Positions 49,138-64,000 of a stretch of 64,000 nt of DNA are shown piece by piece. The notes under the pieces were generated by a model. The model searched no databases. It was not told the DNA's origin and was given only the letters and a program-made list of their open reading frames with translations. Each line of letters begins with the position of its first letter. Position 1 is the first letter of the stretch. The translations under genes were made by a program, and so were the position numbers. Origin of the DNA: Candidatus Nanohaloarchaea archaeon (GTDB taxonomy: Archaea; Nanohalarchaeota; Nanosalinia; Nanosalinales; Nanosalinaceae); NCBI GenBank assembly GCA_014297435.1, contig JACOQA010000003.1:64001-128000 (forward strand). Reading direction: 5' to 3'.

Positions 49138-50694
49138 ATGCCCGGAAGAATAGAAGAGATGGAGAGATTTGAACATATCCTGAAGGTTCTAGCAGAGGAA
49201 GGCTTCGGATCTGCACTCGACAGGATGGATCTGATGCATCACGTACCTGTCGCAAGAAAGATGTCAACACGACAGAAAAAGCCGGGTCCGGAAAGACTTA
49301 GAGAGACCTTCGAAGAGCTGGGTCCTGCATTCATCAAGTTCGGACAGATAATGTCGGAGAGACCTGACCTGATACCTGAAAAATATACCGAAGAGCTAGA
49401 GAAACTGGAAGACTCCGCCCCCAAAGTAGATTACGAAGAGATAGAAAAAATAGTTGGTGACGAGATCGGACTCGAAAAGTTTGATAGATTTGAGAACGAG
49501 CCTATAGCCTCGGCATCTATAGCTCAAGTACACAAAGCTGTTTTGGATGGGAAGGAAGTTGCTGTTAAAGTTAGGAGACCTGACATACAGGAGCGGATGG
49601 ATGAAGACCTGCGTATAATCAGGTACCTAGCTACGAAAGCCGACAAACAACTTGATATAGGAGGAAACATGTTGAAGAAAGAGGCTGAGGAGTTTGCCAG
49701 ATGGACGAGGGACGAGCTTGATTTCGAGAAAGAAGCAAGAAACCTTGAACGATTCCAGAAAAATCTGGAGGACGAGGAAAAGATATTTGTTCCAGATGTT
49801 TATACAGATATTTCTACACGAAAAGTTCTGGTGATGGAGTATGTTGACGCCTTAAAGTGTGACAATACTGAAGCGATGCAGGATCTGGATGTCGACCAGA
49901 AAGAAATCGCAAGAACCGGACTCCGCTCATTCCTCAAACAGCTTCTGCGGGACGGATTTATTCATGTAGATCCTCATCCCTCCAACTTTATGGTAAAAGA
50001 CACAGGAGAACTTGTCTACCTTGATTTCGGCATGATGGCGGATATATCGCCCTCGATGCAGAAAGATATCGGCATGCTGATGATTCACACCTACAACGAG
50101 GACGTTGATCGATTCATGAATACGATAACAGCTATGTCAACTGTTGAGGAAGATGCCGATCTTGAATCGCTCAGGAAAGAAGTTGAGAGAATGGTCATAG
50201 ACTTGAGAGATGCGAAACTCGAGGAAACAAGTATTTCAACGAGTTTGATGCACATAGCAAAGACAGCCGCCGACAAAGGAGTCTACCTTCCTACAAGGTT
50301 CGTCTTGATAGGCAAAGGACTTGTGACCATGGAAGGCATCGGATTAAAGATATATCCCGATTTCGAGTTCAACGACGAGTATCAGAGGATTGTCGAGGAA
50401 CAATTAGCAGAGAACACAGCGAATCCCTCAGAAATCAGTAAATCGCTAGCGTTCAATTTGGTAGAGAACAAGGATCTAGTAACAGATCTGCCAGGGAAGC
50501 TTAACAGAGCGCTTGAACAGGCAGGAAAACCGGATAGAGTTAAGGTCGAAAGTCAGACCCCGGATCTTGTTGTTCCATCTCTGATTGTTGGTTCTGCTAT
50601 AGTTCTTTCAAGCTCCATGAAGAATCGGATGGCTGTCGGTCTCGGAATTCTAGGTTTAGGATATGCCTCACTCCTCTACATGAAGGAACGTTAG
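49138..50694 (+). CDS. AarF/UbiB/ABC1 atypical kinase-ATPase
   Basis: LGPAFIKFGQ, ASASIAQVH.A, VAVKV.RP, HVDPHPSN, LDFGM; C-terminal TMs. Confidence 0.93.
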   Translation: MPGRIEEMERFEHILKVLAEEGFGSALDRMDLMHHVPVARKMSTRQKKPGPERLRETFEELGPAFIKFGQIMSERPDLIPEKYTEELEKLEDSAPKVDYEEIEKIVGDEIGLEKFDRFENEPIASASIAQVHKAVLDGKEVAVKVRRPDIQERMDEDLRIIRYLATKADKQLDIGGNMLKKEAEEFARWTRDELDFEKEARNLERFQKNLEDEEKIFVPDVYTDISTRKVLVMEYVDALKCDNTEAMQDLDVDQKEIARTGLRSFLKQLLRDGFIHVDPHPSNFMVKDTGELVYLDFGMMADISPSMQKDIGMLMIHTYNEDVDRFMNTITAMSTVEEDADLESLRKEVERMVIDLRDAKLEETSISTSLMHIAKTAADKGVYLPTRFVLIGKGLVTMEGIGLKIYPDFEFNDEYQRIVEEQLAENTANPSEISKSLAFNLVENKDLVTDLPGKLNRALEQAGKPDRVKVESQTPDLVVPSLIVGSAIVLSSSMKNRMAVGLGILGLGYASLLYMKER

Positions 50695-50725
50695 TTTTAT
50701 CCGTAAGAGTGTGTTTCTCAACTAT

Positions 50726-51871
50726 ATGTCGAATCCTTACGGGGAAAGATTCAGGGAAGACGACGAAAAAGAAAGAGAGATTCAAGAGGATGTGGAGGAG
50801 AAAGAGCAGAAACTGAAGTCATACGAGGAAGATATTGAGAGTAAGGAAAAAACCGTGGAGAAAGAAGAGCAGAACCACGAGAACCCTGAGAAAGTTGCAG
50901 AGCAGGAATATCAGATCGACCAGGAGTTGGAATCTGCCGAAGAACTTGCTCAAGAGATACTGAAAGAAATCAAGGAAGAACTCGGTTTAAGTCTTGAGGA
51001 AGAAGAGATACTCGAGAGCGAGGAGGAAGAGCTAAACCAAGAATTGTCGGATGCAGCTGAAAAGCTCTGGGAGCTCGCACAAGAACTCCAAAAAGATCTA
51101 GACACTGACAATAACAGAAGTTTCAACTTCAACTCATTCTCAAACAGACTAGAATCTGCTTTAGAGGAAGTTGAAGATGGTATGCGCAAAAGCCGTGAGA
51201 TAGTCGAGGAGATTGAGGAGCTCGTTTCCGAACTTGAAGAGGTTGAAGCGGAGGAGACCCAGATATGGGAAGAGCTCGAAGAAGAGGAAGTAGAGGTAAA
51301 GCACGCCGAGAAGGAAGTAAAGGTCGAAGCAGAGGAAAGCCGTAGAGCCTCCGATTCCAAAGCTTTCGATGAAGCGAAACAGGAGAACCAGATGGTCTCC
51401 AAGTTAGAAGCAATGCAGGAAGAGAACGAACATTTCAGTATTGAGCTCGAGACTCAGCTTCAGACCGAAATAACTCGGCTAGAAGAGTTAGCTGGAATGA
51501 TGGATGCAGTTATACAGTCAAAGATGGGAAGCCGTCAGAAAGAGAAAGGCATAATGTACGATCTCGATGTCATCCACAAAGAGCTGACAAAGCTTGCGGA
51601 GAGACAGAACAGGCGTATGAAAAGAAAGATCAAGCAGTTGATTGAAAGGGTTGAGGAGGTCTTTCAGGAGCTTCAGAGGATTGAAGGTACGGAAGAGGAA
51701 GAACTGAAGAAGATAGACCGGGAGATAAAGAAAACCGAGTCTCAGAACAGCAAGTTAATGAAGGCCTCAAACGCCGCAAGCAAGGCAGGAAGCGGAATTA
51801 AAGCGGTAGCCAGCATAGCGATAGTTATCGGCATCTCGGTAGTTGTGATTTCTCAACTCGGTATCCTGTAA
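50726..51871 (+). CDS. Long acidic coiled-coil protein with C-terminal membrane anchor
   Basis: E/K/Q-rich heptads throughout; single terminal TM. Confidence 0.7.
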   Translation: MSNPYGERFREDDEKEREIQEDVEEKEQKLKSYEEDIESKEKTVEKEEQNHENPEKVAEQEYQIDQELESAEELAQEILKEIKEELGLSLEEEEILESEEEELNQELSDAAEKLWELAQELQKDLDTDNNRSFNFNSFSNRLESALEEVEDGMRKSREIVEEIEELVSELEEVEAEETQIWEELEEEEVEVKHAEKEVKVEAEESRRASDSKAFDEAKQENQMVSKLEAMQEENEHFSIELETQLQTEITRLEELAGMMDAVIQSKMGSRQKEKGIMYDLDVIHKELTKLAERQNRRMKRKIKQLIERVEEVFQELQRIEGTEEEELKKIDREIKKTESQNSKLMKASNAASKAGSGIKAVASIAIVIGISVVVISQLGIL

Positions 51872-51910
51872 CCGCCCCTGTATAAAAAGGTTAACTTCAA
51901 CTTCTGCCAC

Positions 51911-52333
51911 ATGGGTTTGTACAACGCGCGCAAAGTTAGAAAGAAGCGGCAACAGTACCGCTGGAGCGACATCGACTACAAAAGAAGAATGAACAACCTG
52001 AAGGAGAAGTCCGACCCTTTGGAAGGATCCCCTCAGGGAAGAGGAATCGTACTAGAAAAGAGAGGTATCGAGGCAAAGCAGCCTAACTCCGCTATCCGTA
52101 AATGTGTGCGTGTACAGTTGATCAAAAACGGTAAACAACTAACAGCTTTCGTTCCTGGCGACCAAGCAATCGACCACATCGACGAACACGACGAAGTCCT
52201 GATTGAAGGAATCGGAGGAGCAGACTCCGGACCGAAGGGAGACATCCCAACAGTCAGATACAAAGTAATCAAGGTAAACGGCGTATCACTCGAAGAACTG
52301 GTCGAAGGAAACCAGCAGAAGCCAACACGGTGA
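51911..52333 (+). CDS. rps12: 30S ribosomal protein uS12
   Basis: [29 protein letters not shown]. Confidence 0.97.
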
Positions 52334-52339
52334 TATAAT

Positions 52340-52966
52340 ATGAGCGACGCAGCAACACTAGACCTAGAAGACGAACTTCTCACCATGGGAAGATGGGATG
52401 CATCCGAAGTAGAGATCGAGGACGACGGACTTGTAAGATACGTCAATCTTGACAACATCCTTGCACCACGTTCTAAAGGAAGACATACAGAGAGACAGTT
52501 CTACAAAGCAGATGTCCCAATCGTGGAACGCCTAATGACACGGCTTCAGGTCGCAGGACACAGAGGAAAGAAACACTACATTACTTCCGGACACAACACC
52601 GGATCCGCAGAATCAATCTGGAACATGATTGAGGAAGCATTCGAGATAATCGAAGACGAGACAGGCGAGAACCCGATCCAGGTACTAGTCAACGGAATCG
52701 AGAACTCTGCACCCGCAGAAGAAGTTGTTACATACCAGAGAGGTGGCGCAAGAGCCAGGAAAGCAGTACTGGTCTCACCTCAGAGAAGAGTTGATCTAGC
52801 TCTGAGACTTCTCGCACAGGGAGCCTACGAGAAAAGACTTGCTGAAGGAAACGACGCAGCAAACGTTCTAGCGAACGAGATTATCCTTGCAGCCAACGGA
52901 GACGACGACGCTCGCTGTGTACGCGAGAAAGAGAGAAGAGAAAGAGAAGCAGAAGGCGCACGTTAA
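52340..52966 (+). CDS. rps7: 30S ribosomal protein uS7
   Basis: PIVERL, NPIQVLV..IENSAP.EE, VSPQRRVDLALR. Confidence 0.96.
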   Translation: MSDAATLDLEDELLTMGRWDASEVEIEDDGLVRYVNLDNILAPRSKGRHTERQFYKADVPIVERLMTRLQVAGHRGKKHYITSGHNTGSAESIWNMIEEAFEIIEDETGENPIQVLVNGIENSAPAEEVVTYQRGGARARKAVLVSPQRRVDLALRLLAQGAYEKRLAEGNDAANVLANEIILAANGDDDARCVREKERREREAEGAR

Positions 52967-53190
52967 AAACCTCTTCTATCTCTCCTCCATTTTCCATGTA
53001 ACTGACTAATTGTTTTTCTCATCTAAATTCAGAATCCCTCGATAGGATAAGGATGAAGATTAGTTGACCTAAATGGGGTCTCTGAGGCAGGAGAAGCAGA
53101 TTTTAGTGAACAGTGGGCTTCCGTCCTAATAATCCTTTTTTAAAACTTGGAACTTGTTTCTCATACATATAACCTGAGGTTATACTAAAA

Positions 53191-55380
53191 ATGTCTGACA
53201 AAGAGCTTGACGCAATTAAAGGCGTGATCGAAGATCCTGAACACATCAGGAACATCGCGATCGCCGCACACATCGACCACGGAAAAACAACACTAACTGA
53301 CAACTTACTGGCCAGAGCTGGCATGATCTCCGACAAGCTAGCCGGGGACCAGCGCTTCATGGACTTCGATGACCAGGAAGCAGAGAGAGGCATCACGATT
53401 TATTCTGCAAACATCTCTATGGTCCACGAGTTTGATAATGAAGACTATCTTGTAAACCTTATTGACACACCAGGCCACGTTGACTTCGGTGGAGACGTTA
53501 CACGTGCTATGCGTGCTGTCGACGGAGTTCTAGTTCTTGTCGACGCTGTCGACGGAGTTATGCCTCAGACAGAGACCGTTATGAAACAGGCACTTCAGGA
53601 GGGCGTCAAGCCGATCCTATTCATCAATAAAGTAGATCGCCTAATCGAAGAGATGCAGTTGACCCCTGAGGAAATGCAGGAAAGATTTACAGAAATTATT
53701 AGAGGAGTTAACGCAGCACTCAGAAAGTACGCAGACGAAGAAACAGCAGAAGAATGGAAGATGAGCGTACAGGATGGAACAGTTGCATTCGGTTCCGCAC
53801 TGATGAACTGGGCTATCTCGATGCCTTACATGCAAGAAACAGGTATCACCTTCTCAGACCTTATTGACAGAGTAAACGAAGGGGACCACGAAGGACTCAA
53901 GGAAGACGCACCTATTGAGGAAGTAGTACTTGACATGGTTGTCAAGCATCTTGTCAACCCTCAGGAGTCTGCGGAATGGAGAATACCTGCTGTATGGCCG
54001 GGAGATGTATCAAGCGCAGTAGGAGACGACATGATGGAACACGACCAGGACGGAAGACTGGTCGGAGTTGTCACGAACGTTGAAGACGACGAACATGCAG
54101 GAACAATCGCAACCGCACGACTCTTCTCCGGAACAGTACACGAAGGAGACGAACTCTACGGACTAGGAAGCCAGAAGACTGAAAGAGCTCAGCAGGTCGG
54201 AATTTACTCCGGTCCAAGAAAGCTTACAGTCGATTCAGTTCCTTGTGGAAACATCGCAGCGATCACCGGACCTGACTTCTCAACGGGAGAAACATTTATC
54301 CTGAAAGGCGATGATGAGATCCAGCCGTTTGAGCAGATCGAACACGTCTTCGAACCTGTCGTCACAAAGTCGATCGAACCAAAGAGAACATCCGACCTTC
54401 CAAAGCTTATTGAAACGCTAAGAAAGCGTGCGAAGGAAGACAACACGATCAAGGTTGACATCGACGAAGAGACAGGAGAGACACTTGTCTCCGGACTCGG
54501 AGAGCTACACATCGAAGCAAAGATTGAAAGACATCTCGAGGAGAAAGGAATCGACATCGACGTCTCTGAACCTATCGTTGTATTCAGAGAAGGTATCGAG
54601 GATGAGAGTGAAGTCGTAACAGGCAAGTCGCCTAACAGACACAACCAGCTTGAAATCTCAGTAGAGCCTATCGACGAAGACGTCAGAAAGTTCCTCAAGG
54701 AAGACTATGAAGAGATAAAGATGCAGGCGGACGACGAGACAGAAGTTCGTGACGCACTTGTCGATGCAGGGCTTGACCAGGACGAGGCAGACAACATCAT
54801 GGACGCTTACGAGGAGAACCTGTTCATCAACTCTTCAAGAGGTATCAAGAACTTGAGAGAGATCCAGGAGTACCTTGTAGATGCATTCCACGAGTTCTGC
54901 GATGAAGGACCTATGGCAGGAGAGCCAGTTATCGGATTGAAGGTCAAGCTTCACGATGCGAAGCTGCACGAGGACGCGATCCACAGAGGTCCATCCCAGA
55001 TGATTCCAGCAACCAAGGATGCGATGACAAGAGGTTTCCTCGAGTCAACACCTAGAGTAATCGAACCTGTTCGAATCCTCAGGATCGACACCCCGACAGA
55101 CGTTATGGGTGACGCTATGACAGAGGTCTCAAACAGAAGAGGAGACGTACAGGACATGGAGGAGGAAGGAGACTCAACCATCCTGACATGTAAGATCCCT
55201 GTCGAGGAGATGTTTGGGTTCGAAGCTGCATTGAAAGGAGCTACGAACGGAAAAGGCTTCTTCAACAACAAGGACATGATCTTTGAACCACTACCAATGA
55301 ACCTCCAGGAAGAAAAGATCATGGAGATCAGAAAGAGAAAGGGAATGAAGGAAGAAATGCCTTCACTCGAAGAGGAGTAA
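53191..55380 (+). CDS. fusA: Elongation factor 2
   Basis: AHIDHGKTT, RGITI, DTPGHVDF, NKVD; diphthamide loop HEDAIHRG. Confidence 0.97.
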   Translation: MSDKELDAIKGVIEDPEHIRNIAIAAHIDHGKTTLTDNLLARAGMISDKLAGDQRFMDFDDQEAERGITIYSANISMVHEFDNEDYLVNLIDTPGHVDFGGDVTRAMRAVDGVLVLVDAVDGVMPQTETVMKQALQEGVKPILFINKVDRLIEEMQLTPEEMQERFTEIIRGVNAALRKYADEETAEEWKMSVQDGTVAFGSALMNWAISMPYMQETGITFSDLIDRVNEGDHEGLKEDAPIEEVVLDMVVKHLVNPQESAEWRIPAVWPGDVSSAVGDDMMEHDQDGRLVGVVTNVEDDEHAGTIATARLFSGTVHEGDELYGLGSQKTERAQQVGIYSGPRKLTVDSVPCGNIAAITGPDFSTGETFILKGDDEIQPFEQIEHVFEPVVTKSIEPKRTSDLPKLIETLRKRAKEDNTIKVDIDEETGETLVSGLGELHIEAKIERHLEEKGIDIDVSEPIVVFREGIEDESEVVTGKSPNRHNQLEISVEPIDEDVRKFLKEDYEEIKMQADDETEVRDALVDAGLDQDEADNIMDAYEENLFINSSRGIKNLREIQEYLVDAFHEFCDEGPMAGEPVIGLKVKLHDAKLHEDAIHRGPSQMIPATKDAMTRGFLESTPRVIEPVRILRIDTPTDVMGDAMTEVSNRRGDVQDMEEEGDSTILTCKIPVEEMFGFEAALKGATNGKGFFNNKDMIFEPLPMNLQEEKIMEIRKRKGMKEEMPSLEEE

Positions 55381-55521
55381 ACTCCCTCCCACATTTTTCT
55401 TTTCCAGATAAATATCTAAGTCTAGCTTTTTGAGCACAATTATCTTCTATTTAGGTCTAGTTAGTCGAACCCACTCGAGAGCAAGCAGGTTTTTATAACC
55501 TTTACATGACAACATAAGAGC

Positions 55522-55857
55522 ATGACGGACGACCACGATTATCTACTTGAGGCCGAAGAAGCCCTGAGAAGAACAGGATACCTCGAAGGAGTCTACCTAC
55601 AGGGACCGGAAGTGACACTAACAGCTGCCAACGTAGAAGAGGCGCTGGAAAAAACCGGAGAACAGGACGAGAACATAGACATTATGTTGAAATGTGACAG
55701 GAACTACAGCGGAGATACAGGCGTCTGGGTATACGAGGACGATGATGGAAACGGTCTTGGAGTGGAGGCGCTACCACCCCTACCCGAGGGAGCTGAGGAA
55801 GTAGACAAGGTCAGAGAAACGCTCGAAGACTGGGGAATAGAAATCGATTACAAGTAA
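55522..55857 (+). CDS. Acidic hypothetical protein
   Basis: 111-aa ORF with TTTATAA box upstream. Confidence 0.65.
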   Translation: MTDDHDYLLEAEEALRRTGYLEGVYLQGPEVTLTAANVEEALEKTGEQDENIDIMLKCDRNYSGDTGVWVYEDDDGNGLGVEALPPLPEGAEEVDKVRETLEDWGIEIDYK

Positions 55858-56024
55858 TCGATCCCAAACCCAAAAAGAGCGAAAAACTAAAATTCCGAGA
55901 TCGACCCGGTTTAGGAGAGCGATCTTGACGAGCATCACCCCTCCGTTTATGGTGTCAAAAAAATATTCCGGGATAGAGCTGAACCATAATATTAGTTTTA
56001 ACAGTCAGAGGACTACTCCCCTAT

Positions 56025-56298
56025 GTGAACTCTTTTCTTGACTACCTGAAACCTGACCGAGGAAAACCTTCTTTTAACACTAGTAATGGGTGCTGTATTT
56101 TTCTCAGTTGCAACTCTTGTCATGGTTTTACTTGAAGTAGTCCTGGTCGGAGAGTTTGTTGATCCGCCGACCGCGGAGACCCCAGAGATGGAGTTCCTAC
56201 TGGTTTTCTCGCCCTTAATAGGCATGCTGGCAGCTTTCTACTTCCAGGTCTGTGTGGCGCTTTACTGGGTTAGAGAGCGTTTTGATGAAGCATATTAG
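56025..56298 (+). pseudogene. Small 2-TM membrane protein, apparently +1 frameshifted near 56064-56068
   Basis: GTG 56025 MNSFLDYLKPDRGK joins LLLTLVMGAVFF... if one base is removed; otherwise a 70-aa ORF from 56086. Confidence 0.45.
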
Positions 56299-56367
56299 AC
56301 CATTCACAAACCCTTTTTAAAGTTTAATCGGGTTAACCGAGTTATACGCTGTAGGTGCAAATCAATA

Positions 56368-57654
56368 ATGGCAGATAAACCACACGTTAACTTAGTATTC
56401 ATCGGACACGTTGACCACGGAAAGTCGACCACAATCGGTAGACTTCTGTGGGACACAGAAAACCTTCCAGAAGAAGAGATGCGAAAGCTCGAAGACGCAG
56501 CTGAAGAAGCTGGCAAAGAAACCTTCGGATTCGCATTCGCTATGGACTCACTTGAAGAGGAGAGAGAAAGAGGAGTTACAATCGACCTCGCTCACAAGGA
56601 GTTCGACTCAGACAACTACTTCTTCACAATCATCGACGCTCCAGGTCACAGAGACTTCATCAAGAACATGATCACAGGAGCCTCTCAGGCCGACGCAGGA
56701 GTTCTAGTTGTTGCGGCTGACGACGGAATCCAGCCACAGACAAAGGAGCACGCATACCTCGCGAAGACTCTTGGAATCGACCAGCTAACAGTAGCTGTCA
56801 ACAAGATGGACCTGGCTGACTACGAAGAAGACGGATTCAACGACATCAAAGGCGATGTCGAGGAGCTGCTTAAGGGCGTAGGATTCGACCCAAGCGACAT
56901 CGACTTCGTACCGATCTCCTCGTTCGAAGGAGAAGGAGTCGCAGAGACTTCCGACGAAATGCCTTGGTACGACGGACCTTCCCTACTTGACTCCCTTGAC
57001 AGCCTAGACGAACCTGAGAAGCCTGAGGACCTACCTCTCAGAGCTCCAATCCAGGACGTCTACAACATCTCCGGAATCGGAGCTGTCACAGTCGGTAGAG
57101 TCGAGACAGGAGAGATCTCACCTGGCGACGACGTAACATTCGAGCCAGCCTCCACAAGACACAACGGAAACGTCGGTGGAGAAGTCAAGACAATCGAGAT
57201 GCACCACGAAGAAGTCGACCACGCAGAAGCAGGAGACAACATCGGATGGAACACAAGAGGCGTAGGTCAAGACAAGGTCAAGAAAGGCGACGTCGCAGGA
57301 CCAAGCGACAACCCTCCAACAGTTGTCGAGACCTTCGAAGCACAGATCATCGTCCTCAACCACCCTAACGTAATCTCCGAAGGATACACACCTGTATTCC
57401 ACGTCAACACGGCACAGGTATCATGCACCTTCGAGGAGATCAAGTCGACGATGAACCCTAAGACAGGAGAGACACTAGAAGAAGACCCAGACTACATCAA
57501 ACAGGGTCAGGCAGCAAAGGTCACAATCAGACCACAGCAGCCTCTCGTCATCGAATCTAACGACGACATCCCACAGATGGCACGTTTCGCCGTCAGAGAC
57601 ATGGGACAGACAGTCGGCGCTGGACAGTGTCTATCCGTAAACGAGAAGGAATAA
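56368..57654 (+). CDS. tuf: Elongation factor 1-alpha
   Basis: [50 protein letters not shown]. Confidence 0.97.
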
Positions 57655-57753
57655 ATTCCCTCCTTCTCATCTCTCTTTTTCAATTTCTATCTATCAGAAA
57701 ACTTGCTTACAAGGTAATCGAAATATATAATATTTCAACTTATTGCTGTAACT

Positions 57754-58014
57754 ATGCCAGGATATACTTCTGTCTTAGCCGGAGCAAGCTTGCTTGGCGC
57801 AGGACTTTTAGCCGTTAGAAGACGTTCTGGAGATGAAGAGTATGAAACTCGGGATCTCGAACCAGCTGAGTTAGGACTCAGTGATTATGAGGACTATCTT
57901 GTTTCTAAAGAAAGAGTGGAAACTCCCGAAGTTTCGGAGGTTATGGACACTCTTGACTCACTTCACACGGAAGAAAGTTACGTGGAACGATTACTGGAGC
58001 CAGAATACGAGTAA
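57754..58014 (+). CDS. Small N-terminally anchored acidic protein
   Basis: Hydrophobic N-terminus then acidic domain. Confidence 0.6.
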   Translation: MPGYTSVLAGASLLGAGLLAVRRRSGDEEYETRDLEPAELGLSDYEDYLVSKERVETPEVSEVMDTLDSLHTEESYVERLLEPEYE

Positions 58015-58086
58015 TAAGTTACGAGAAACCTTTCATCGTCGAGAGCTTAAACACCATTTATAAGATTTAACTCGTGAAGAATTGGT

Positions 58087-58395
58087 ATGAAGAGAGCACG
58101 TGTAAAGCTCAGGAGCACAAGCCAGGACAAGATAGATGAACTGGCGGATGAAATCATAGAGATCGGAGAAGAATACGAGGCAGAAATCTCAGGACCAGTA
58201 CCACTACCAACGCAGACACTGAGAATTCCAACAAGGAAAGCTCCTGACGGAGAAGGTTCCGAAACTATTGAGCGCTACGAGATGCACGTCCACAACAGAC
58301 TTATCGATATTAAGGAGTCTGAGAGAGCGTTGAGACAGGTAATGCGTGTCCACGTTCCTGAAGGCGTCGACATCGAGATCGAGCTTGAAGAGTAG
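58087..58395 (+). CDS. rps10: 30S ribosomal protein uS10
   Basis: SGPVPLPT...IPTRKAPDGEGS....YEMHVH.RLID. Confidence 0.96.
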   Translation: MKRARVKLRSTSQDKIDELADEIIEIGEEYEAEISGPVPLPTQTLRIPTRKAPDGEGSETIERYEMHVHNRLIDIKESERALRQVMRVHVPEGVDIEIELEE

Positions 58396-58492
58396 ATTCT
58401 CAATAATATTTCTTTCTAACTCATTTCTAGTTTAATTGCTAGCTGTGGTCAAACCACAGAGATATTTAAAAATTACCATTTCCAAGTAACAA

Positions 58493-59224
58493 ATGTTAGG
58501 TGGTAAAATGGAAAATAATGGCAAAAATAAAGCAGCCAGAGCTTTACTTGACATAAAAACCAGTGTTGCAGCAAAAACTGAAGGACATGTCGACAGACTT
58601 CAAACAGCAATAGCTCCGGACACGGAAGACAGAAGTATTGACTACAAAATTGAAGACAGAGAAGATCTAACAGTTTACAGAGGACCTAAATCAGTAACCG
58701 TCATGGAGGCATTAGACGCCGATCATTACTCATCAGGCGAACAGTTTGATACAGATCTCAAGCCAATTTCTGAGGACGACATTGAGATCATCGAACAGGA
58801 GACTTATCAAGAGCATAAAAAGTTAGATCCAGAGGAAGTTCTCGAAGCAGAAGAGAAGATTTACACCCAAAAAGCCAGTAGAGACGATGATAAACTCCTA
58901 GAACCGGATGCCAAATACCCTCATGATGATAAACTAGTATGGGACGTGTCTAGTGATGTTAGCAATTCCGTAACAGGGATCTACAACTCCATAGACGAGG
59001 CAGAACTTGAACTCGAATTTACCAAGGACATAACTGATGTAGAATTAGAAAAGGTACAGATCTTGGCAGAAAACATCCACAACCAGGACGATACATCAAC
59101 CTCCCTTCAAGACACTGTCGACTACTCAAAGTTTAAGTCCGAAGATACTTACGACAGGCTTCCAGAAGACATTGAGACCGGGATAGAATTAGATACGGAT
59201 TATTCGGACAGATTTGAGCTATAG
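58493..59224 (+). CDS. Acidic hypothetical protein
   Basis: 243-aa D/E-rich ORF. Confidence 0.65.
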   Translation: MLGGKMENNGKNKAARALLDIKTSVAAKTEGHVDRLQTAIAPDTEDRSIDYKIEDREDLTVYRGPKSVTVMEALDADHYSSGEQFDTDLKPISEDDIEIIEQETYQEHKKLDPEEVLEAEEKIYTQKASRDDDKLLEPDAKYPHDDKLVWDVSSDVSNSVTGIYNSIDEAELELEFTKDITDVELEKVQILAENIHNQDDTSTSLQDTVDYSKFKSEDTYDRLPEDIETGIELDTDYSDRFEL

Positions 59225-59374
59225 AATGTCACCAGGGGAGGTTTCCCCTTCCCTCTCTAAATATCGAGAAGGTTTCCAACCTAATTTAAAGTTTCTACCA
59301 GCTTCTAATTTTAGACGGTTCAACAGAGCGCTTCCTATTCCGGAAGGGCTTGACTGATTAAACTCGAGTTTGTT

Positions 59375-59460
59375 GCCGAGGTGACTGAGTGGCTAAAGGT
59401 GCCACCCTGGAAAGGTGGTGAGCGTTACAGCTCTCCTGGGTTCAAATCCCAGCCTCGGCG
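59375..59460 (+). tRNA. tRNA-Ser(GGA), probable provirus integration site
   Basis: GCCGAGG...CCTCGGC G; CCACC CTGGAAA GGTGG; long variable arm GAGC..GCTC. Confidence 0.95.
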
Positions 59461-59564
59461 TTTTTCAGCCGTTTCAGGCTCTAACGCCCGGTTTTAGTTC
59501 TCAACTTCTTCAAAATCCTAAAACTTCTCTAAACACTTCAATTCTTACTTAAGGGGTTTCTTTG

Positions 59565-59789
59565 ATGCCTAAGACAGATAGAGATGTTTATATGGAAGAT
59601 AGGGGACGTAAAGGTAAGCAAGATCGTCTTGATAGTTATGCGGATAGTCTAAAAGAATCCGAAGAGGAAAACTTGGATTTAGAAGAAGAACCAACTTTAG
59701 AAGAATCACTTAGTCCTGAAGAGCAACAGGCATTTCTTAAAATGGGCGAGAACGCCAAGAAACTGATTAAAGGTGATACGGATGCCTGA
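59565..59789 (+). CDS. Small proviral protein with PIP-box-like motif
   Basis: 74 aa; KQDRLDSY followed by an acidic tract. Confidence 0.6.
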   Translation: MPKTDRDVYMEDRGRKGKQDRLDSYADSLKESEEENLDLEEEPTLEESLSPEEQQAFLKMGENAKKLIKGDTDA

Positions 59790-59934
59790 GTGTCCATATT
59801 GTGGTGAAGAATTTGAGTCAGAACATAAAGAAGGCGTTCATAGATCGAAAGAGCATGTGAATGAGGATAATATTACTCGCAAAAAGCAAACAGCGAGCAA
59901 AGGCGTATTTTACAAGAACAGCAACGGTGAATAG
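59782..59934 (+). CDS. C2H2 zinc-finger protein (50 aa, not in ORF track)
   Basis: AGGTGA SD; MPECPYCGEEFESEHKEGVHRSKEH... Confidence 0.75.
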   Translation: MPECPYCGEEFESEHKEGVHRSKEHVNEDNITRKKQTASKGVFYKNSNGE

Positions 59935-59935
59935 C

Positions 59936-60253
59936 ATGAAAGAACAAGAAGACAATCTAGAACAGCTTTTTATCAACGAAAAACCCTACAAAATGATTAT
60001 AAAACTGCTTAGAAACCGTCTAAAGGACGATTTATGTAAACATGATCTTTCTAAGGCGGTTGATTCCACTTATTCACACACAGTTAAAGTGGTTGATCGT
60101 TTTGAAGAACTAGAACTTATCGAAACCAAAAAAGAGGGTAGAAAAATGGTTATTACCCTAACATCAAAGGGTGTTGAGGTTGCTAAGGCTCTCGAAAACC
60201 TGGAATCTGTAAAAACAAAAAAGCTGGATTTAGAAGGAGTTGAATCTGCATGA
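59936..60253 (+). CDS. Winged-HTH (MarR/ArsR-like) regulator
   Basis: DLSKAVDSTYSHTVKVVDRFEELELIETKKEGRKMVITLTSKG. Confidence 0.85.
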   Translation: MKEQEDNLEQLFINEKPYKMIIKLLRNRLKDDLCKHDLSKAVDSTYSHTVKVVDRFEELELIETKKEGRKMVITLTSKGVEVAKALENLESVKTKKLDLEGVESA

Positions 60254-60363
60254 AAAAGGATTCAATCGCTCAACGTATCTATAACGATTGTAGAAGAAGT
60301 GGATTAGGACATAGCCATTCAATCCGTATAGTTAAAAGCCGTATTGGAGGTATTAAGCAGTAA
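60250..60363 (+). CDS. 37-aa basic proviral peptide (not in ORF track)
   Basis: ATGA overlap with previous stop; MKKDSIAQRIYNDCRRSGLGHSHSIRIVKSRIGGIKQ*. Confidence 0.5.
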   Translation: MKKDSIAQRIYNDCRRSGLGHSHSIRIVKSRIGGIKQ

Positions 60364-60527
60364 TGTCTGGTTTCTACCGAACCTGTTATTTATGCGGTGC
60401 AGAGATTGACCAAAAGAAAAATTCTAAGCGTTTTGAAATAGAAGGGGAACCTTCTGGAATTCTTTATGGTCATAAACATGAAGTAGAGCGGAAAATCCGG
60501 AGAAACGATAAATATGTAGAGGTTTAG
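60363..60527 (+). CDS. 54-aa CxxC protein (not in ORF track)
   Basis: GGAGGT SD, TAATG overlap; MSGFYRTCYLCGAEID...GHKHEVER... Confidence 0.6.
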   Translation: MSGFYRTCYLCGAEIDQKKNSKRFEIEGEPSGILYGHKHEVERKIRRNDKYVEV

Positions 60528-60531
60528 GAAC

Positions 60532-60975
60532 ATGGAAGAGGTTTCTAGCCTTAAAAGTCCTGAAGCTAGAATTGAATCTCTTGAAAAAGCTGTTAGGCAT
60601 TTGAAGGATAAAGTCAGAGAGTTAGAAGAACAAAAAGCCGATTTAAGCGATAGAGTACAGTTTCTTGAAAACAAAGAAGGAAAAAATCAGCCTAACAGAA
60701 AGTTTAAAGTTTCTAAAAGAATTACTAACGACAAAGGAGAATTAGAAAGAGATTTTTATGATGAAAGAGCTAAAAATGTCGCTAAAGAAGTTATGAAGCG
60801 TGGCAAAGCGAGAAGCGGCGAATTTGATAAAATACTCAGAGAACATGATGTCGACGTAAGTAACCCAACTAAATTGAATATAATGCGAAGATATGGCAAA
60901 GCCTTTGATTTTTTCAAGTTTAAAGGGCAGAAAAAAGGCGTTAGAAAGGAATCAGCTTTAATCCATACCCCTTAG
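60532..60975 (+). CDS. Coiled-coil plus basic putative DNA-binding proviral protein
   Basis: GAGGT SD; N-terminal heptads, K/R-rich C-terminal domain. Confidence 0.7.
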   Translation: MEEVSSLKSPEARIESLEKAVRHLKDKVRELEEQKADLSDRVQFLENKEGKNQPNRKFKVSKRITNDKGELERDFYDERAKNVAKEVMKRGKARSGEFDKILREHDVDVSNPTKLNIMRRYGKAFDFFKFKGQKKGVRKESALIHTP

Positions 60976-61006
60976 AACCCTATTTAGCTCATTATTTTTA
61001 GGTCGA

Positions 61007-61336
61007 AAAAACCTTAATTTTACACGTTTCTGAAAGAAAGGCATAGCCGGAAGTTTAAGGTTTTTGCGATATTGAAAACCTTAAACTATGTAGCTGGCTG
61101 GTTCTTCTTGTAAAATTCGGTTTTGTCTAGAAGTGTGAAAAAGCGGATTTAATGTTTAAGGTTTTCTAAAATATAACACCATTATATAACACTGTTATAC
61201 TTTAGAAGTACACTTACAGACTCTTAACGTTAATTTTTTGGCGTAATGACTAAACAGTAAAAAACAGCGTTAAAGCCTAAAACCTTAATCTTCGGGGGGT
61301 TGGGGTCTCTAAGAAACGTGTAAAATTAAGGTTTTT
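61007..61336. repeat. Perfect 25-bp inverted repeat enclosing alternating AAAACCTTAA decamers and a 13-bp hairpin
   Basis: AAAAACCTTAATTTTACACGTTTCT (61007-61031) / AGAAACGTGTAAAATTAAGGTTTTT (61312-61336); decamers at 61008+, 61055-, 61075+, 61156-, 61279+, 61326-. Confidence 0.9.
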
Positions 61337-61347
61337 AGCACGGACTT

Positions 61348-61368
61348 AATTATAACGCCGTTATAATT
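61348..61368. promoter_or_regulatory. Palindromic operator-like site in front of the structural operon
   Basis: AATTATAACG C CGTTATAATT, ending 11 bp before ATG 61380; related sites at 61172-61186 and 61185-61199. Confidence 0.6.
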
Positions 61369-61379
61369 TAGGACTAACT

Positions 61380-61814
61380 ATGAAACTATCAAACTTAACT
61401 CCCGGAAATTCGGACAGCTCCGGGGCGTTACTCGATTCCGGTGGTCGGGTCGCTGGTTCAATATTTCTTTTAGCGACTATGGCTCTTTTTGGCGGATTCG
61501 AACACGTCACGGGGTATTTAACTAGCGAGGCTTTTACTGTAGCCGGAGTTACCATGCTTTGGGCAGAAGTGGCGGTTATAGCGACTTCACTCTACGCGGT
61601 TGCTAACGCACAGACGACAAAGACAGGTATAAGCACGGCAGGAGCAACTTTACTTGTTTCAAGCGTGGCTTTTGTCTTTTCGAGCGGCTTGACTTCTTGG
61701 GTTAGTGGTTCTGCATCCAAGAGTCTTTTAATAACGGCTATTACGGCAGTAATCTATATAGCAACTATTGAAGGACGAGAGATAGGAGGTGCTGTGAAAA
61801 ATGTCACGAACTAA
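61380..61814 (+). CDS. Multi-TM protein, putative pleolipovirus internal membrane (matrix, VP3-like) protein
   Basis: 144 aa, about 4 hydrophobic helices, first gene of the operon that contains the spike-like gene. Confidence 0.65.
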   Translation: MKLSNLTPGNSDSSGALLDSGGRVAGSIFLLATMALFGGFEHVTGYLTSEAFTVAGVTMLWAEVAVIATSLYAVANAQTTKTGISTAGATLLVSSVAFVFSSGLTSWVSGSASKSLLITAITAVIYIATIEGREIGGAVKNVTN

Positions 61815-62826
61815 ACTGATCTTCGGCTCACTTGCCGTCCTAAGCCTCATAGGAATGGTTTCGACATCAACCGCCTACCTTTCAGCAACCGACAGCGGAT
61901 ACGACACCAGCAACTACATAACGATCACAGAACCGATCAACAAGACCACAGTTTTCTACGGCGATCTAGAACAAGGAGAAAGCGACACAATAAGTTTTGA
62001 AGCAACTGTAGACCTTCAAGCAATCGCAAACGACAAAGGCTACAATTCCCCAAGCGACTTGCATGTTGGAGCCGTAGTAGCCAACGGATTCGGAGACAAC
62101 CAAACAACCGCAAGCCTAGACAGCTACGGAACCATAAACAGAAACCTAACAAACGGAACGATGACAGTAACCGGTCAAATGCCACTTTACAACCTTAAAG
62201 ACCAGTTAGGAGACGCATTATGGAGCGAAGGCTACGGCTTCACAATATCGGCATTCAACGCCACGGACGGCTTCACAGAAGCCGACCTCACAAAGCTTGA
62301 AGCACGACATTCACACGCCTTCAAACTTGAAAGAGCACAAGACACACTCTTACAAGCAAACACCACAGAATCATGGAATTCAGCGGTCGAGACAACCACA
62401 GACTTCAAGTTTGAGAACGATTCAGCGAAAGCAACAAGCAAAAACGCATCACTACAGTTTAATGAAGTTCCAGCACAGATTTACGAAAGCCTAGAGATCG
62501 AAGTAAGCAAACAGGACGCCAACTCGAACGTAGACGCACAGATCGAATACCTCAACACCGGAAACAGCCGGACGGAAGCACTTAGTGACGGGTTGAACAC
62601 AATCGACCCGAATGTTCCGGACAACACGGAAGAGGTAAGAATCAGCATAGAAACCGACTCAGAGAACGTATCAATCGACTCTGTCAATCTATACGGCAGA
62701 TTCGACAATCTACAACTTACGCCTATAGGAGCTATAGGCGGTTCGGAGATCCCGATCATTTCAGATCTGTTGAACGGTCTGGAAAATCTGTTTAACGCGG
62801 TCTTGGAGTGGATTCCTTTCGTATGA
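61801..62826 (+). CDS. Secreted proviral glycoprotein (possible second spike/adhesin)
   Basis: Signal peptide, many sequons, beta-rich body, amphipathic C-terminus IPIISDLLNGLENLFNAVLEWIPFV. Confidence 0.65.
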   Translation: MSRTKLIFGSLAVLSLIGMVSTSTAYLSATDSGYDTSNYITITEPINKTTVFYGDLEQGESDTISFEATVDLQAIANDKGYNSPSDLHVGAVVANGFGDNQTTASLDSYGTINRNLTNGTMTVTGQMPLYNLKDQLGDALWSEGYGFTISAFNATDGFTEADLTKLEARHSHAFKLERAQDTLLQANTTESWNSAVETTTDFKFENDSAKATSKNASLQFNEVPAQIYESLEIEVSKQDANSNVDAQIEYLNTGNSRTEALSDGLNTIDPNVPDNTEEVRISIETDSENVSIDSVNLYGRFDNLQLTPIGAIGGSEIPIISDLLNGLENLFNAVLEWIPFV

Positions 62827-64000
62827 AGCGAAAGGTCGCCACTCTGACCCTAATTTCTCTTATCCTCATCAGCACCGCATCAGCCTTAGCTTTATCTTCT
62901 GTTGCCGTAGCCTCAGGTATTGGAGTTTGTGCTATTGATGCAGTTGCCGGAGACGGATGTTTCGGATTCGGCGGAGACGGAGAAATTGACGGAGCAACAC
63001 CAGACGAAGTTAAAAACAGCATATACGGCAACGGAGTATTTAGGGAAGATCAAAGACAACGCATGGTTACGCAGGTTTCTAGCTATGCGAATCAGAGCTA
63101 CGGAGTTTCGATGGGTCAAGCCAAAATGTACGGCATAGAAGCCCACAACAACGGTTCAGCGAAATCTGTAGCCTATAACAAGATCCAGAGCGAGGTAAAC
63201 GACTTTTACGCAACATATCAGCTTTCACTTATCAGAGACAGAAACACCGAAGCCCTCAAGTTCAACGAATCACTTAACACGATCCAAGCAACGAATGAAC
63301 TCAGCACAGAAGATGTTTTCAGAGTCAAAGCATCCTCTGACAGCCACTCAGGAAACGTCCATAATGCCGAGATCGTCGAGGAATCGGTAACTCTAGTCAA
63401 CGGATCAGAAATTAAAAGTTATCAAGTAAACGTAAGTTTCACAGATGGTTATACAGATAGTGAGATTGTTGAAGAGGTCTACACAGAACTAGGCAAGTTT
63501 AAGAGCGACCTATCCGATCCCGAAGCAGTCATCGGCAAGGACAGCGATGGCGATACTGCAAGATTTCTTGATAACAGCGATTACAGCGAAGCATGGAACG
63601 AAATTAACGGACATCGCCAAAGAGCGATTGACAACGTGAACAACGTCATCGACAAGGTTTACAGCCAGTACGACCCCGGAGAAATCGATTTGAAGGACAC
63701 GATGACCCCACTAGAACTCTTACAGACAGCATCAACCAACTACGAGGACACGGGCTATTACGGCTATGCGTCCCTTTCGTTGGAGTACATGGGTCTTTCA
63801 AGCAACGAAAGCTATGCGTTCAACGTGACATGGAACAACCAAGGTGTAGACGAGAAAACCGGGCACGGACAGTTATTTGTCAACAAGGACGACTTTAGCA
63901 ACGGTCTCGAAGTTGACACGACTTATGACGCATCGAATCGACCGGCTTGGTTCGTCCACAGCAACGACAACGGAAAAGCCCAAACAACACGCCTCAACGG
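62823..64000 (+). CDS. Pleolipovirus spike/fusion protein homologue (VP4/VP5-like), partial
   Basis: Frame is open from ATG 62823 to the window end; signal peptide, Gly/Ala-rich N-terminus, AKMYGIEAHNNGS...EVNDFYATYQ, TLVNGS, VYSQYDPGEIDLKDTMTPLE, GLEVDTTYDAS. Confidence 0.8.
   Translation, partial: MKRKVATLTLISLILISTASALALSSVAVASGIGVCAIDAVAGDGCFGFGGDGEIDGATPDEVKNSIYGNGVFREDQRQRMVTQVSSYANQSYGVSMGQAKMYGIEAHNNGSAKSVAYNKIQSEVNDFYATYQLSLIRDRNTEALKFNESLNTIQATNELSTEDVFRVKASSDSHSGNVHNAEIVEESVTLVNGSEIKSYQVNVSFTDGYTDSEIVEEVYTELGKFKSDLSDPEAVIGKDSDGDTARFLDNSDYSEAWNEINGHRQRAIDNVNNVIDKVYSQYDPGEIDLKDTMTPLELLQTASTNYEDTGYYGYASLSLEYMGLSSNESYAFNVTWNNQGVDEKTGHGQLFVNKDDFSNGLEVDTTYDASNRPAWFVHSNDNGKAQTTRLN

Follow-up and report, generated by a model that had tools for sequence, protein, structure and literature searches.

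A probable Nanopleoviridae-type provirus at the tRNA-Ser(GGA) gene of a nanohaloarchaeon

The window, i.e. the whole 64,000-nucleotide (nt) stretch of DNA analysed here, is G000:C9:64001-128000, G000 being the source genome of a nanohaloarchaeon (998,768 bp in 15 contigs, guanine plus cytosine (GC) content 0.44, 99% complete). Close to its right end begins an element of 9,205 bp that is very probably the complete integrated genome of a temperate pleomorphic virus of the membrane-vesicle type, of the pleolipovirus lineage and with a nanohaloarchaeal host: a Nanopleoviridae-type provirus. The element sits on the 207-kb contig C9, at G000:C9:123462-132666 as measured from the base after the left attachment (att) core, attL, to the end of the right one, attR. 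Only its first 4.5 kb are inside the window, and features past the window end are given on the locus L001 (C9:121001-141000), where L001 position equals window position minus 57000. An earlier reading made from the sequence alone had placed a pleolipovirus-like provirus at this tRNA gene and had put its integrase, nucleoside triphosphatase (NTPase), attR and replication protein (Rep) outside the window. The first three do lie downstream, 0.3-4.7 kb beyond the window end, whereas no Rep was found in the element.

The boundaries of the element, and the enzyme presumably responsible for them, are as follows.

59374-59461, plus strand: tRNA-Ser(GGA), called by ARAGORN, one of four tRNA genes in the window; the integration target, intact after integration
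59448-59461, plus strand: attL core CCCAGCCTCGGCGT, formed by the last 14 nt of the tRNA gene, from a repeat search
L001 11653-11666 (G000:C9:132653-132666), outside the window: attR core, 14 nt, identical to attL
L001 10433-11407, minus strand: tyrosine integrase, 324 amino acids (aa), with matches to PF00589 (E 5.4e-20) and phrog_1 (E 5.4e-29)

The last 24 nt of the tRNA gene recur at L001 11643-11666 with 21 of 24 positions identical, and inside that repeat the 14-nt core CCCAGCCTCGGCGT is exact at both ends of the element. The downstream copy is 246 nt from the start of the integrase gene, and alignment of the product with related integrases shows the catalytic residues R170, H264xxR267 and Y300 to be retained. 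Thus both of the downstream checks proposed here, a tyrosine integrase and a directly repeated tRNA 3′ end, turn out positive, and the two features are neighbours at the right end.

What the site looks like without the element can be seen in a genome of the same genus. With 16 kb across the locus searched against five related genomes, G001, which has the same tRNA-Ser(GGA) with the same 3′ part, matches the left flank at 90% identity up to exactly the tRNA end (query 2461), and the right flank restarts at query 11724. The two matches are 588 bp apart in G001 with no virus between, as against a gap of 9.26 kb in G000. When the three sites are aligned, the G001 sequence to the left of the core is that of attL and the sequence to its right (GGCGTCC) is that of attR. 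The ARAGORN call, the core at both ends and this unoccupied congener site together bear out the proposed integration at tRNA-Ser(GGA). The element is absent from both of the same-genus genomes searched (G001, 88% complete, and G002, 77%), which shows the insertion to be specific to G000 within the genus as far as those two go, and it is therefore probably recent. The unoccupied site in G001 contains a small gene of its own (G001:C11, L013 2918-3440), whose product, by eye, has a zinc-ribbon start and what is presumably a Nudix-box-like motif.

The nature of the element is set by the genes that follow its intergenic region, most of them in an order familiar from pleomorphic archaeal viruses.

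61380-61814, plus strand: 144-aa multi-pass membrane protein, with three clear hydrophobic helices and a weaker fourth in a hydropathy scan
61801-62826, plus strand: 341-aa acidic protein, secreted or anchored, with an N-terminal hydrophobic segment and nine N-x-S/T sites
62808-64000 (first 397 codons; the gene ends at L001 7307, G000:C9:128307), plus strand: VP4/VP5-type spike (membrane fusion), 499 aa
L001 7310-7825, plus strand: ORF6-like protein, 171 aa, phrog_1938 E 7.6e-18
L001 7831-8664, plus strand: ORF7-like protein, 277 aa, no family hit, identified by profile-profile comparison
L001 8645-9736, plus strand: VP8-type NTPase, 363 aa, phrog_1979 E 1.9e-54, with a weak match to nSTAND3 NTPases
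L001 10209-10436: open reading frame (ORF) of 75 aa, no evidence of family

The match of the spike to phrog_2231 has an E value of 6.2e-71, the protein is related to VP5 chains of known structure (6qgi_A, E 6.3e-16; 6j7v_A, 4e-7; 6qgl_A, 2.5e-6), and tblastn against a phage collection gave 27 records, all of them pleomorphic archaeal viruses, at 21-29% identity with a best E value of 1e-19. Under each of the 27 matches lies an annotated spike gene (VP4, VP5, VP2, VP1 or simply ‘spike’), and no match covers 80% of the query. The hydropathy scan adds a signal-like N terminus and a C-terminal transmembrane segment at residues 462-480. The ORF that the sequence-only reading had called spike-like is accordingly a spike gene. 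The NTPase matches 35 records, all from haloarchaeal pleolipoviruses, and in tblastn searches of six reference genomes both spike and NTPase find a counterpart in all six, while the 171-aa ORF finds ORF30 of His2 only and the 144-aa, 341-aa and 277-aa proteins find none. For the two ORFs between spike and NTPase, small alignments of the nanohaloarchaeal copies were set against the haloarchaeal ORF6 and ORF7 sets by profile-profile comparison (hhalign), the 171-aa family matching ORF6 with Prob 98.7 and E 2e-16 and the 277-aa family matching ORF7 with Prob 98.0 and E 1.5e-13. The NTPase cluster predicted to lie downstream is therefore there, and the order matrix-like protein, spike, ORF6, ORF7, NTPase agrees with the annotated gene order of HRPV-1, HHPV-1, HGPV-1, HRPV-10, His2 and SNJ2. 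Pleomoviria are delimited, in the part of PMC13595969 available, by a morphogenetic module in which a fusion protein specific to archaea is combined with a membrane-embedded matrix protein. The spike is such a fusion protein, and the ORF6-like protein, the ORF7-like protein and the NTPase follow it in that order.

The matrix protein is another matter. The 144-aa product had been described as having four transmembrane segments, which agrees with the three clear helices plus a weaker fourth, and its position, size and hydrophobic helices put it in the place of a VP3-type matrix or internal membrane protein. Counterparts of 157 and 151 aa occupy the same position in the related elements of G004 and L065 (see below). 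Against three VP3/VP2 sets hhalign gave Prob 0.4-0.9%, but a control comparison of the alpha- with the beta-pleolipovirus matrix sets also gave just 1.0%, so that the profile test has no power here and says nothing either way. An AF2 (AlphaFold 2) model built on three sequences is unusable, with a predicted local distance difference test score (pLDDT) of 38.5. High sequence divergence is noted for VP3-like matrix proteins in general (PMC13595969, in the part available).

Between the genes for the matrix-like protein and the spike is an extra one. Its 341-aa product, foreseen as a secreted protein and fitting that description by its N-terminal hydrophobic segment and glycosylation-type sites, may reasonably be read as a candidate second envelope glycoprotein, because the His2 record has a gene (ORF28) for a multiply glycosylated protein with a signal peptide directly upstream of its spike gene, as in the provirus. 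A positional counterpart of 274 aa in the G004 element has weak similarity (E 0.001), and one is probably present at the same place in L065. In sequence it is an orphan: no match was found in Pfam, PHROG or NCBIfam, the Atlas gave no usable hit, its structural neighbours all having a template-modelling (TM) score below 0.4, and an exhaustive HMMER search over 1.84 billion representatives retrieved nothing but the query and a single repeat protein of 1124 aa. In the latter (P0006), 11 repeated stretches are matched by residues 248-332 of the query, a likeness which hints that the C-terminal part may be a repeat-type, perhaps adhesin-like, domain.

Relatives of the element are few, and their distribution bears on whose virus it is. 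Comparison extended to 70 genomes of the phylum (all of 0.5-1.7 Mb), of which five, G000 included, have a match to the NTPase profile. That in G052 is weak, with no other provirus gene there, and that in G004 is truncated where its contig stops. G004, G057 and a metagenome contig, L065, have the same block of genes, with identities of 27-37%. The last, the only relative to come from the metagenome scan, is near-complete at 7,672 bp (GC 0.39), with no terminal overlap found; its spike frame is open for some 80 codons upstream of the likely start, so that the spike gene and the secreted-protein gene before it may overlap or form a fusion. The host family also includes G011, a metagenome-assembled genome (MAG) of Candidatus Nanohaloarchaea archaeon. 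G011 holds two different NTPase copies on separate contigs (C82, locus L010, and C81, locus L012), each 37-39% identical to that of the provirus, which points to the presence of two related elements or else to a bin that mixes strains.

Among species-representative genomes 36 loci match, two of them in G011 at 36-38% identity and 34 in Halobacteria at 21-27%. In IMG/VR the NTPase alone retrieves no relative and a five-row alignment retrieves six loci, all at 23-26% identity, the five for which GC content was computed being at 0.54-0.64; these are haloarchaeal-type viruses, not close relatives. A word-based protein search, with 2,887 candidates, yielded four sequences. Besides the query, they comprise a pair with 46-47% identity, encoded on contigs of 9.0 and 10.7 kb, and a fourth with 29%. 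As to spacer-like matches, the provirus had none outside the element when compared with the remainder of G000 by short-word blastn, CRISPR arrays and the spacers of other genomes not being part of that search.

In a quick maximum-likelihood tree of the NTPase (54 rows, two short ones having been dropped before it was built), the six nanohaloarchaeal rows form one clade, with a Shimodaira-Hasegawa-like approximate likelihood ratio test (SH-aLRT) value of 98, apart from 43 haloarchaeal and four Archaeoglobi rows. That clade, together with a GC content of 0.41 against 0.54-0.64 in the haloarchaeal virus contigs, argues that the virus lineage is one of nanohaloarchaea and did not come to them recently from their haloarchaeal hosts. 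Of two ideas in the sequence-only reading, then, that of a virus of the symbiont itself is upheld, the element being integrated between host genes in a nanohaloarchaeal contig with its NTPase in the nanohaloarchaeal clade, and that of virus exchange between host and symbiont is spoken against by the tree, at least for recent times.

Base composition also needs to be considered for what it says of the join. In 500-nt windows GC is 0.41-0.54 over 50000-59499, 0.374-0.336 over 59500-61249 and 0.43-0.50 from 61250 on, so the DNA does become richer in A and T directly after the tRNA, as had been noticed, falling to 0.34-0.37 past 59461. Overall the provirus is at 0.406 and the host contig at 0.445, with the provirus itself in two parts: early module 0.37, intergenic region 0.33 and integrase end 0.37 on the one hand, and a host-like structural operon at 0.44 on the other. 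Such an abrupt change at 59461 is what a haloarchaeal pleolipovirus contig misjoined to a nanohaloarchaeal one in assembly or binning might produce, and tRNA genes are common places for misjoins. The probability of such an artefact is nonetheless next to nil. Host genes continue on both sides on the one 207-kb contig, with EF-1alpha and a tRNA to the left and a cytidylate-kinase-like gene, archease and RtcB to the right. In G001 the two flanks are next to each other, and the att core is present twice, as expected after integration. Its GC of 0.41 is also far under that of haloarchaeal virus contigs, and its NTPase groups with nanohaloarchaeal copies, with identity to haloarchaeal ones of only 21-27%. 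A misjoin of unrelated contigs at 59460 can be set aside on the synteny of the flanks in an element-free genome of the same genus and on the att core match, and a haloarchaeal origin of the element is rejected on its GC, NTPase clade and identities.

There is also the matter of replication. Scans of the 13 provirus ORFs with Pfam and PHROGs, and of 10 ORFs with NCBIfam, revealed no replication gene, antisense ORFs being outside both scans. This lends something to the notion of a cryptic or defective provirus, integrated as described but no longer able to excise, replicate or form particles and persisting as a genomic island, as does an att repeat that is exact over 14 nt only. Defectiveness is possible though unlikely. 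All 13 ORFs are open and, against the relatives, of full length, integrase, spike and NTPase included; the integrase has kept its catalytic residues; absence from both same-genus genomes searched makes the insertion probably recent; and the published members of the family, along with some pleolipoviruses, are likewise described as having no recognisable replication gene (10.1101/2025.02.15.638363 and PMC13595969, as far as the available text of each goes). The same lack of a replication protein can be turned to a different purpose, that of an integrated plasmid-like or vesicle-forming element which has borrowed a pleolipovirus morphogenetic module and is no virus in the strict sense. An early module of small regulators with host paralogues would suit this, and so would the free exchange of replication modules between this realm and plasmids (PMC13595969, available in part). 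However, the canonical structural block is there in full, with its genes ordered as in the viruses, and size and content match the description of the nanohaloarchaeal virus DNPV-1 (9.1 kb, same module, no Rep) in the accessible text of its report, which leaves the plasmid-like alternative highly improbable.

Several points weigh against a complete and functional provirus of a nanohaloarchaeon even so. With no replication protein found, autonomy is assumed. The matrix (VP3-like) gene has no sequence, profile or structural support, the att repeat is imperfect outside its core (21/24), and the G001 site is not perfectly empty, the small gene between its tRNA and right flank being absent from G000. 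The assignment of the host to its phylum is based on kinship to one MAG and on genome size, and the NTPase tree is a quick build, for which the program gave warnings about long branches and unequal composition.

Between the tRNA and the structural genes are the following features.

59562-59789, plus strand: 75-aa acidic ORF, first of the low-GC early or regulatory module (22 aspartate plus glutamate (D+E) against 12 lysine plus arginine (K+R) residues)
59773-59934, plus strand: 53-aa zinc-finger-like ORF (CPYC...H...H), with weak zinc-finger and zinc-ribbon matches, all below curated cut-offs
59861-60253, plus strand: 130-aa winged-helix protein, Pfam HTH_27 E 3e-4, just under the cut-off, with NCBIfam matches of winged helix-turn-helix (wHTH) type below cut-offs
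60363-60527, plus strand: 54-aa ORF with a CxxC motif, from the ORF list
60532-60975, plus strand: 147-aa basic protein, with a long N-terminal helix and then a C-terminal alpha/beta domain resembling a winged helix
60976-61379, no strand: non-coding region of 404 nt, GC 0.33, with repeats and a palindrome

The overlapping small, often basic ORFs that had been reported after the tRNA are all present where they were placed, three of the five having more K+R than D+E and two being acidic. The first, of 75 aa, gives nothing above noise in Pfam, PHROG or NCBIfam, and the 54-aa ORF has no family match in these three. The 130-aa winged-helix protein, a candidate DNA-binding regulator of lysogeny or transcription, shares 43-46% identity with the products of two wHTH genes of the host, both on contig C8, a likeness that suggests gene exchange between virus and nanohaloarchaeal host. 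Those host genes are tandem winged-helix regulators of 94 and 105 aa at G000:C8:142554-143271 (L073 6554-6838 and 6954-7271).

The 147-aa protein is shared with L065 (6061-6468; 38% identity, E 1.7e-22), and in both G000 and L065 its gene is just upstream of an intergenic region bearing the same 10-mer. Its AF2 model (pLDDT 78) has a helix at residues 10-51 and a beta-alpha domain. None of 363 Foldseek matches in the PDB is at E 0.001 or below, and the top weak hits are winged-helix DNA binders (TM-score 0.43-0.49 normalised by target), which is suggestive only. As for the region itself, singled out beforehand as repeat-rich and rightly so, six copies of the 10-mer AAAACCTTAA, arranged in three convergent pairs, lie within 330 nt of 60976-61379. 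The number expected in the 20-kb locus is 0.14, and not one shuffle out of 200 had as many as six. The region further holds an inverted repeat of 31 nt and, at its centre, a palindrome with 22-nt arms. L065 has two copies of the 10-mer in its corresponding intergenic region; the other 64 loci compared have none. The region is a candidate operator or promoter of the structural operon, a candidate replication origin, or both.

Put together, a life cycle may be envisaged. The integrase would have joined the viral attP to the 3′ end of the tRNA gene, leaving the tRNA intact, in a reaction that is presumably reversible. The low-GC module of small putative DNA-binding proteins (zinc-finger-like, winged helix, and coiled-coil plus winged-helix-like) would control the switch, its products acting on the AT-rich region with the six 10-mers, which probably drives the structural operon and may be an origin. 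The operon products, i.e. membrane (matrix) protein, secreted glycoprotein, VP4-type fusogen spike, ORF6-like and ORF7-like proteins and VP8-type NTPase, would then serve to make enveloped virions, with non-lytic budding as their way out of the cell and membrane fusion as their way in. Replication would depend on host factors, because no replication gene is recognisable.

A more adventurous proposal takes three things jointly, to the effect that the provirus is active and self-sufficient in ways undescribed for its family: the 10-mer and palindrome region and the 147-aa protein encoded upstream of it may be a new Rep-less pair of origin and initiator, or a lysogeny switch; the orphan 341-aa glycoprotein may be a second, fast-evolving receptor-binding envelope protein; and virions may bud from a cell that presumably borrows its lipids from the haloarchaeon it lives with, in which case the envelope would be host lipid at third hand. 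That all three hold is rather a long shot. Bolder still, the symbiont may use the viral fusogen for contact with its host, and against this speaks the sporadic presence of the module, in at most five of the 70 genomes.

G000 contains other tyrosine integrases. One outside the window on the same contig (G000:C9:166196-167515, L071 8196-9515; 439 aa, PF00589 E 7e-23) is 32% identical to that of the provirus and has a C-terminal CxxC extension like those of Archaeoglobi virus integrases. It may mark another mobile element, and its neighbours, of 235 and 493 aa, have no Pfam match. A further one, of 429 aa (G000:C8:247639-248928, L072 13639-14928; PF00589 E 2e-11), is 79 nt downstream of a tRNA-Arg(GCG) gene (L072 13489-13560) and about 1 kb from a contig end, the layout expected of another tRNA-integrated element that broke the assembly.

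In terms of significance, viruses of DPANN symbionts add a third layer, with virus on parasite on host, and an enveloped budding virus in a cell of reduced genome raises the question of where envelope lipids and replication factors come from. In the available text of the reports concerned, these points have already been made with the 2025 description of nanohaloarchaeal pleomorphic viruses and a provirus (10.1101/2025.02.15.638363; PMC13595969; PMC13631441). What the present element offers is a cleanly bounded example, with exact att sites, tRNA-Ser(GGA) as target and an unoccupied congener site, plus two features worth following: the conserved 10-mer repeat region and an orphan glycoprotein conserved by position.

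The closest viral relatives of the integrase are those of the Thalassapleoviridae ThalV2 and Geoglobus acetivorans pleomorphic virus 1, at 32-33% identity over 92-96% of the length (E 1e-37 to 2e-38, and 1e-44 to 1e-45 in a local comparison), and the 439-aa paralogue on C9 is as close to the provirus integrase as they are. SNJ2 integrase, in contrast, gave a blastp E value of 0.12 over 53 residues, i.e. no relation to the SNJ2 type. These Archaeoglobi viruses also have a VP3-like/VP4-like module and an integrase at one genome end. They differ in that their integrases have a C-terminal extension with a CxxC zinc-ribbon-like motif which that of the provirus does not, their NTPases form a separate and very distant clade, and they encode a rolling-circle Rep, none having been found in the provirus.

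With Pleolipoviridae (HRPV-1, HHPV-1, HGPV-1, HRPV-10, His2, SNJ2) the provirus shares the colinear block of spike, ORF6, ORF7 and NTPase, and His2 gives the best scores among the reference viruses for spike, ORF6-like protein and NTPase. Identities are only 21-29%, however, and 41 of the 43 haloarchaeal NTPase rows fall in a main clade that leaves the provirus outside, with His2 and SNJ2 elsewhere in the tree. The haloarchaeal virus contigs, as above, are far higher in GC. Of the replication genes of that family listed in the available part of PMC13595969 (HUH Rep, Rep-Arvir, protein-primed PolB), none was found among the provirus ORFs scanned. Being outside the haloarchaeal NTPase clade, with no genus-typical replication gene found, the element would on this evidence not belong to Pleolipoviridae in the strict sense.

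The nearest counterpart is a family that can be compared by description only. Zhou et al. 2025 (bioRxiv 10.1101/2025.02.15.638363) present, in the text available, DNPV-1, a 9.1-kb metagenomic pleomorphic virus assigned to Nanohaloarchaeota, and a closely related provirus, ANPV-1, integrated in a nanohaloarchaeal MAG. Both have a module of VP3-like and VP4-like proteins, ORF6, ORF7 and an AAA+ ATPase with no detectable replication protein, and they are placed outside the haloarchaeal Pleolipoviridae in a proposed family Nanopleoviridae. Going again by the portions available, J Virol 2026 (PMC13595969) gives it as an accepted family and PMC13631441 treats it as established. The conjecture that related viruses may have been reported from metagenomes was thus correct, DNPV-1 being metagenomic, and the novelty hoped for in the sequence-only reading had been overtaken, nanohaloarchaeal pleomorphic viruses and an integrated provirus having been in print since 2025. 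To judge from these accounts, the likeness to Nanopleoviridae extends to a Nanohaloarchaeota host, a genome of about 9 kb, the same module, no Rep, a distant relation to haloarchaeal pleolipoviruses and one member that is itself an integrated provirus. The kind of element, its host and the main conclusions are thus, on the text available, already published, and the element may be a further member of the family or the published provirus itself. The available part of the text on Nanopleoviridae, figure S7 and the tables apart, has no mention of a tRNA-Ser(GGA) target, a 14-nt core, an unoccupied congener site, a six-copy 10-mer region or an extra secreted protein. The additions made here are incremental: the att core with its tRNA target, the unoccupied congener site, the 10-mer region, the orphan glycoprotein and the link of the integrase to Archaeoglobi viruses, while the NTPase tree and base composition give independent support to the published view that these viruses have stayed with nanohaloarchaea.

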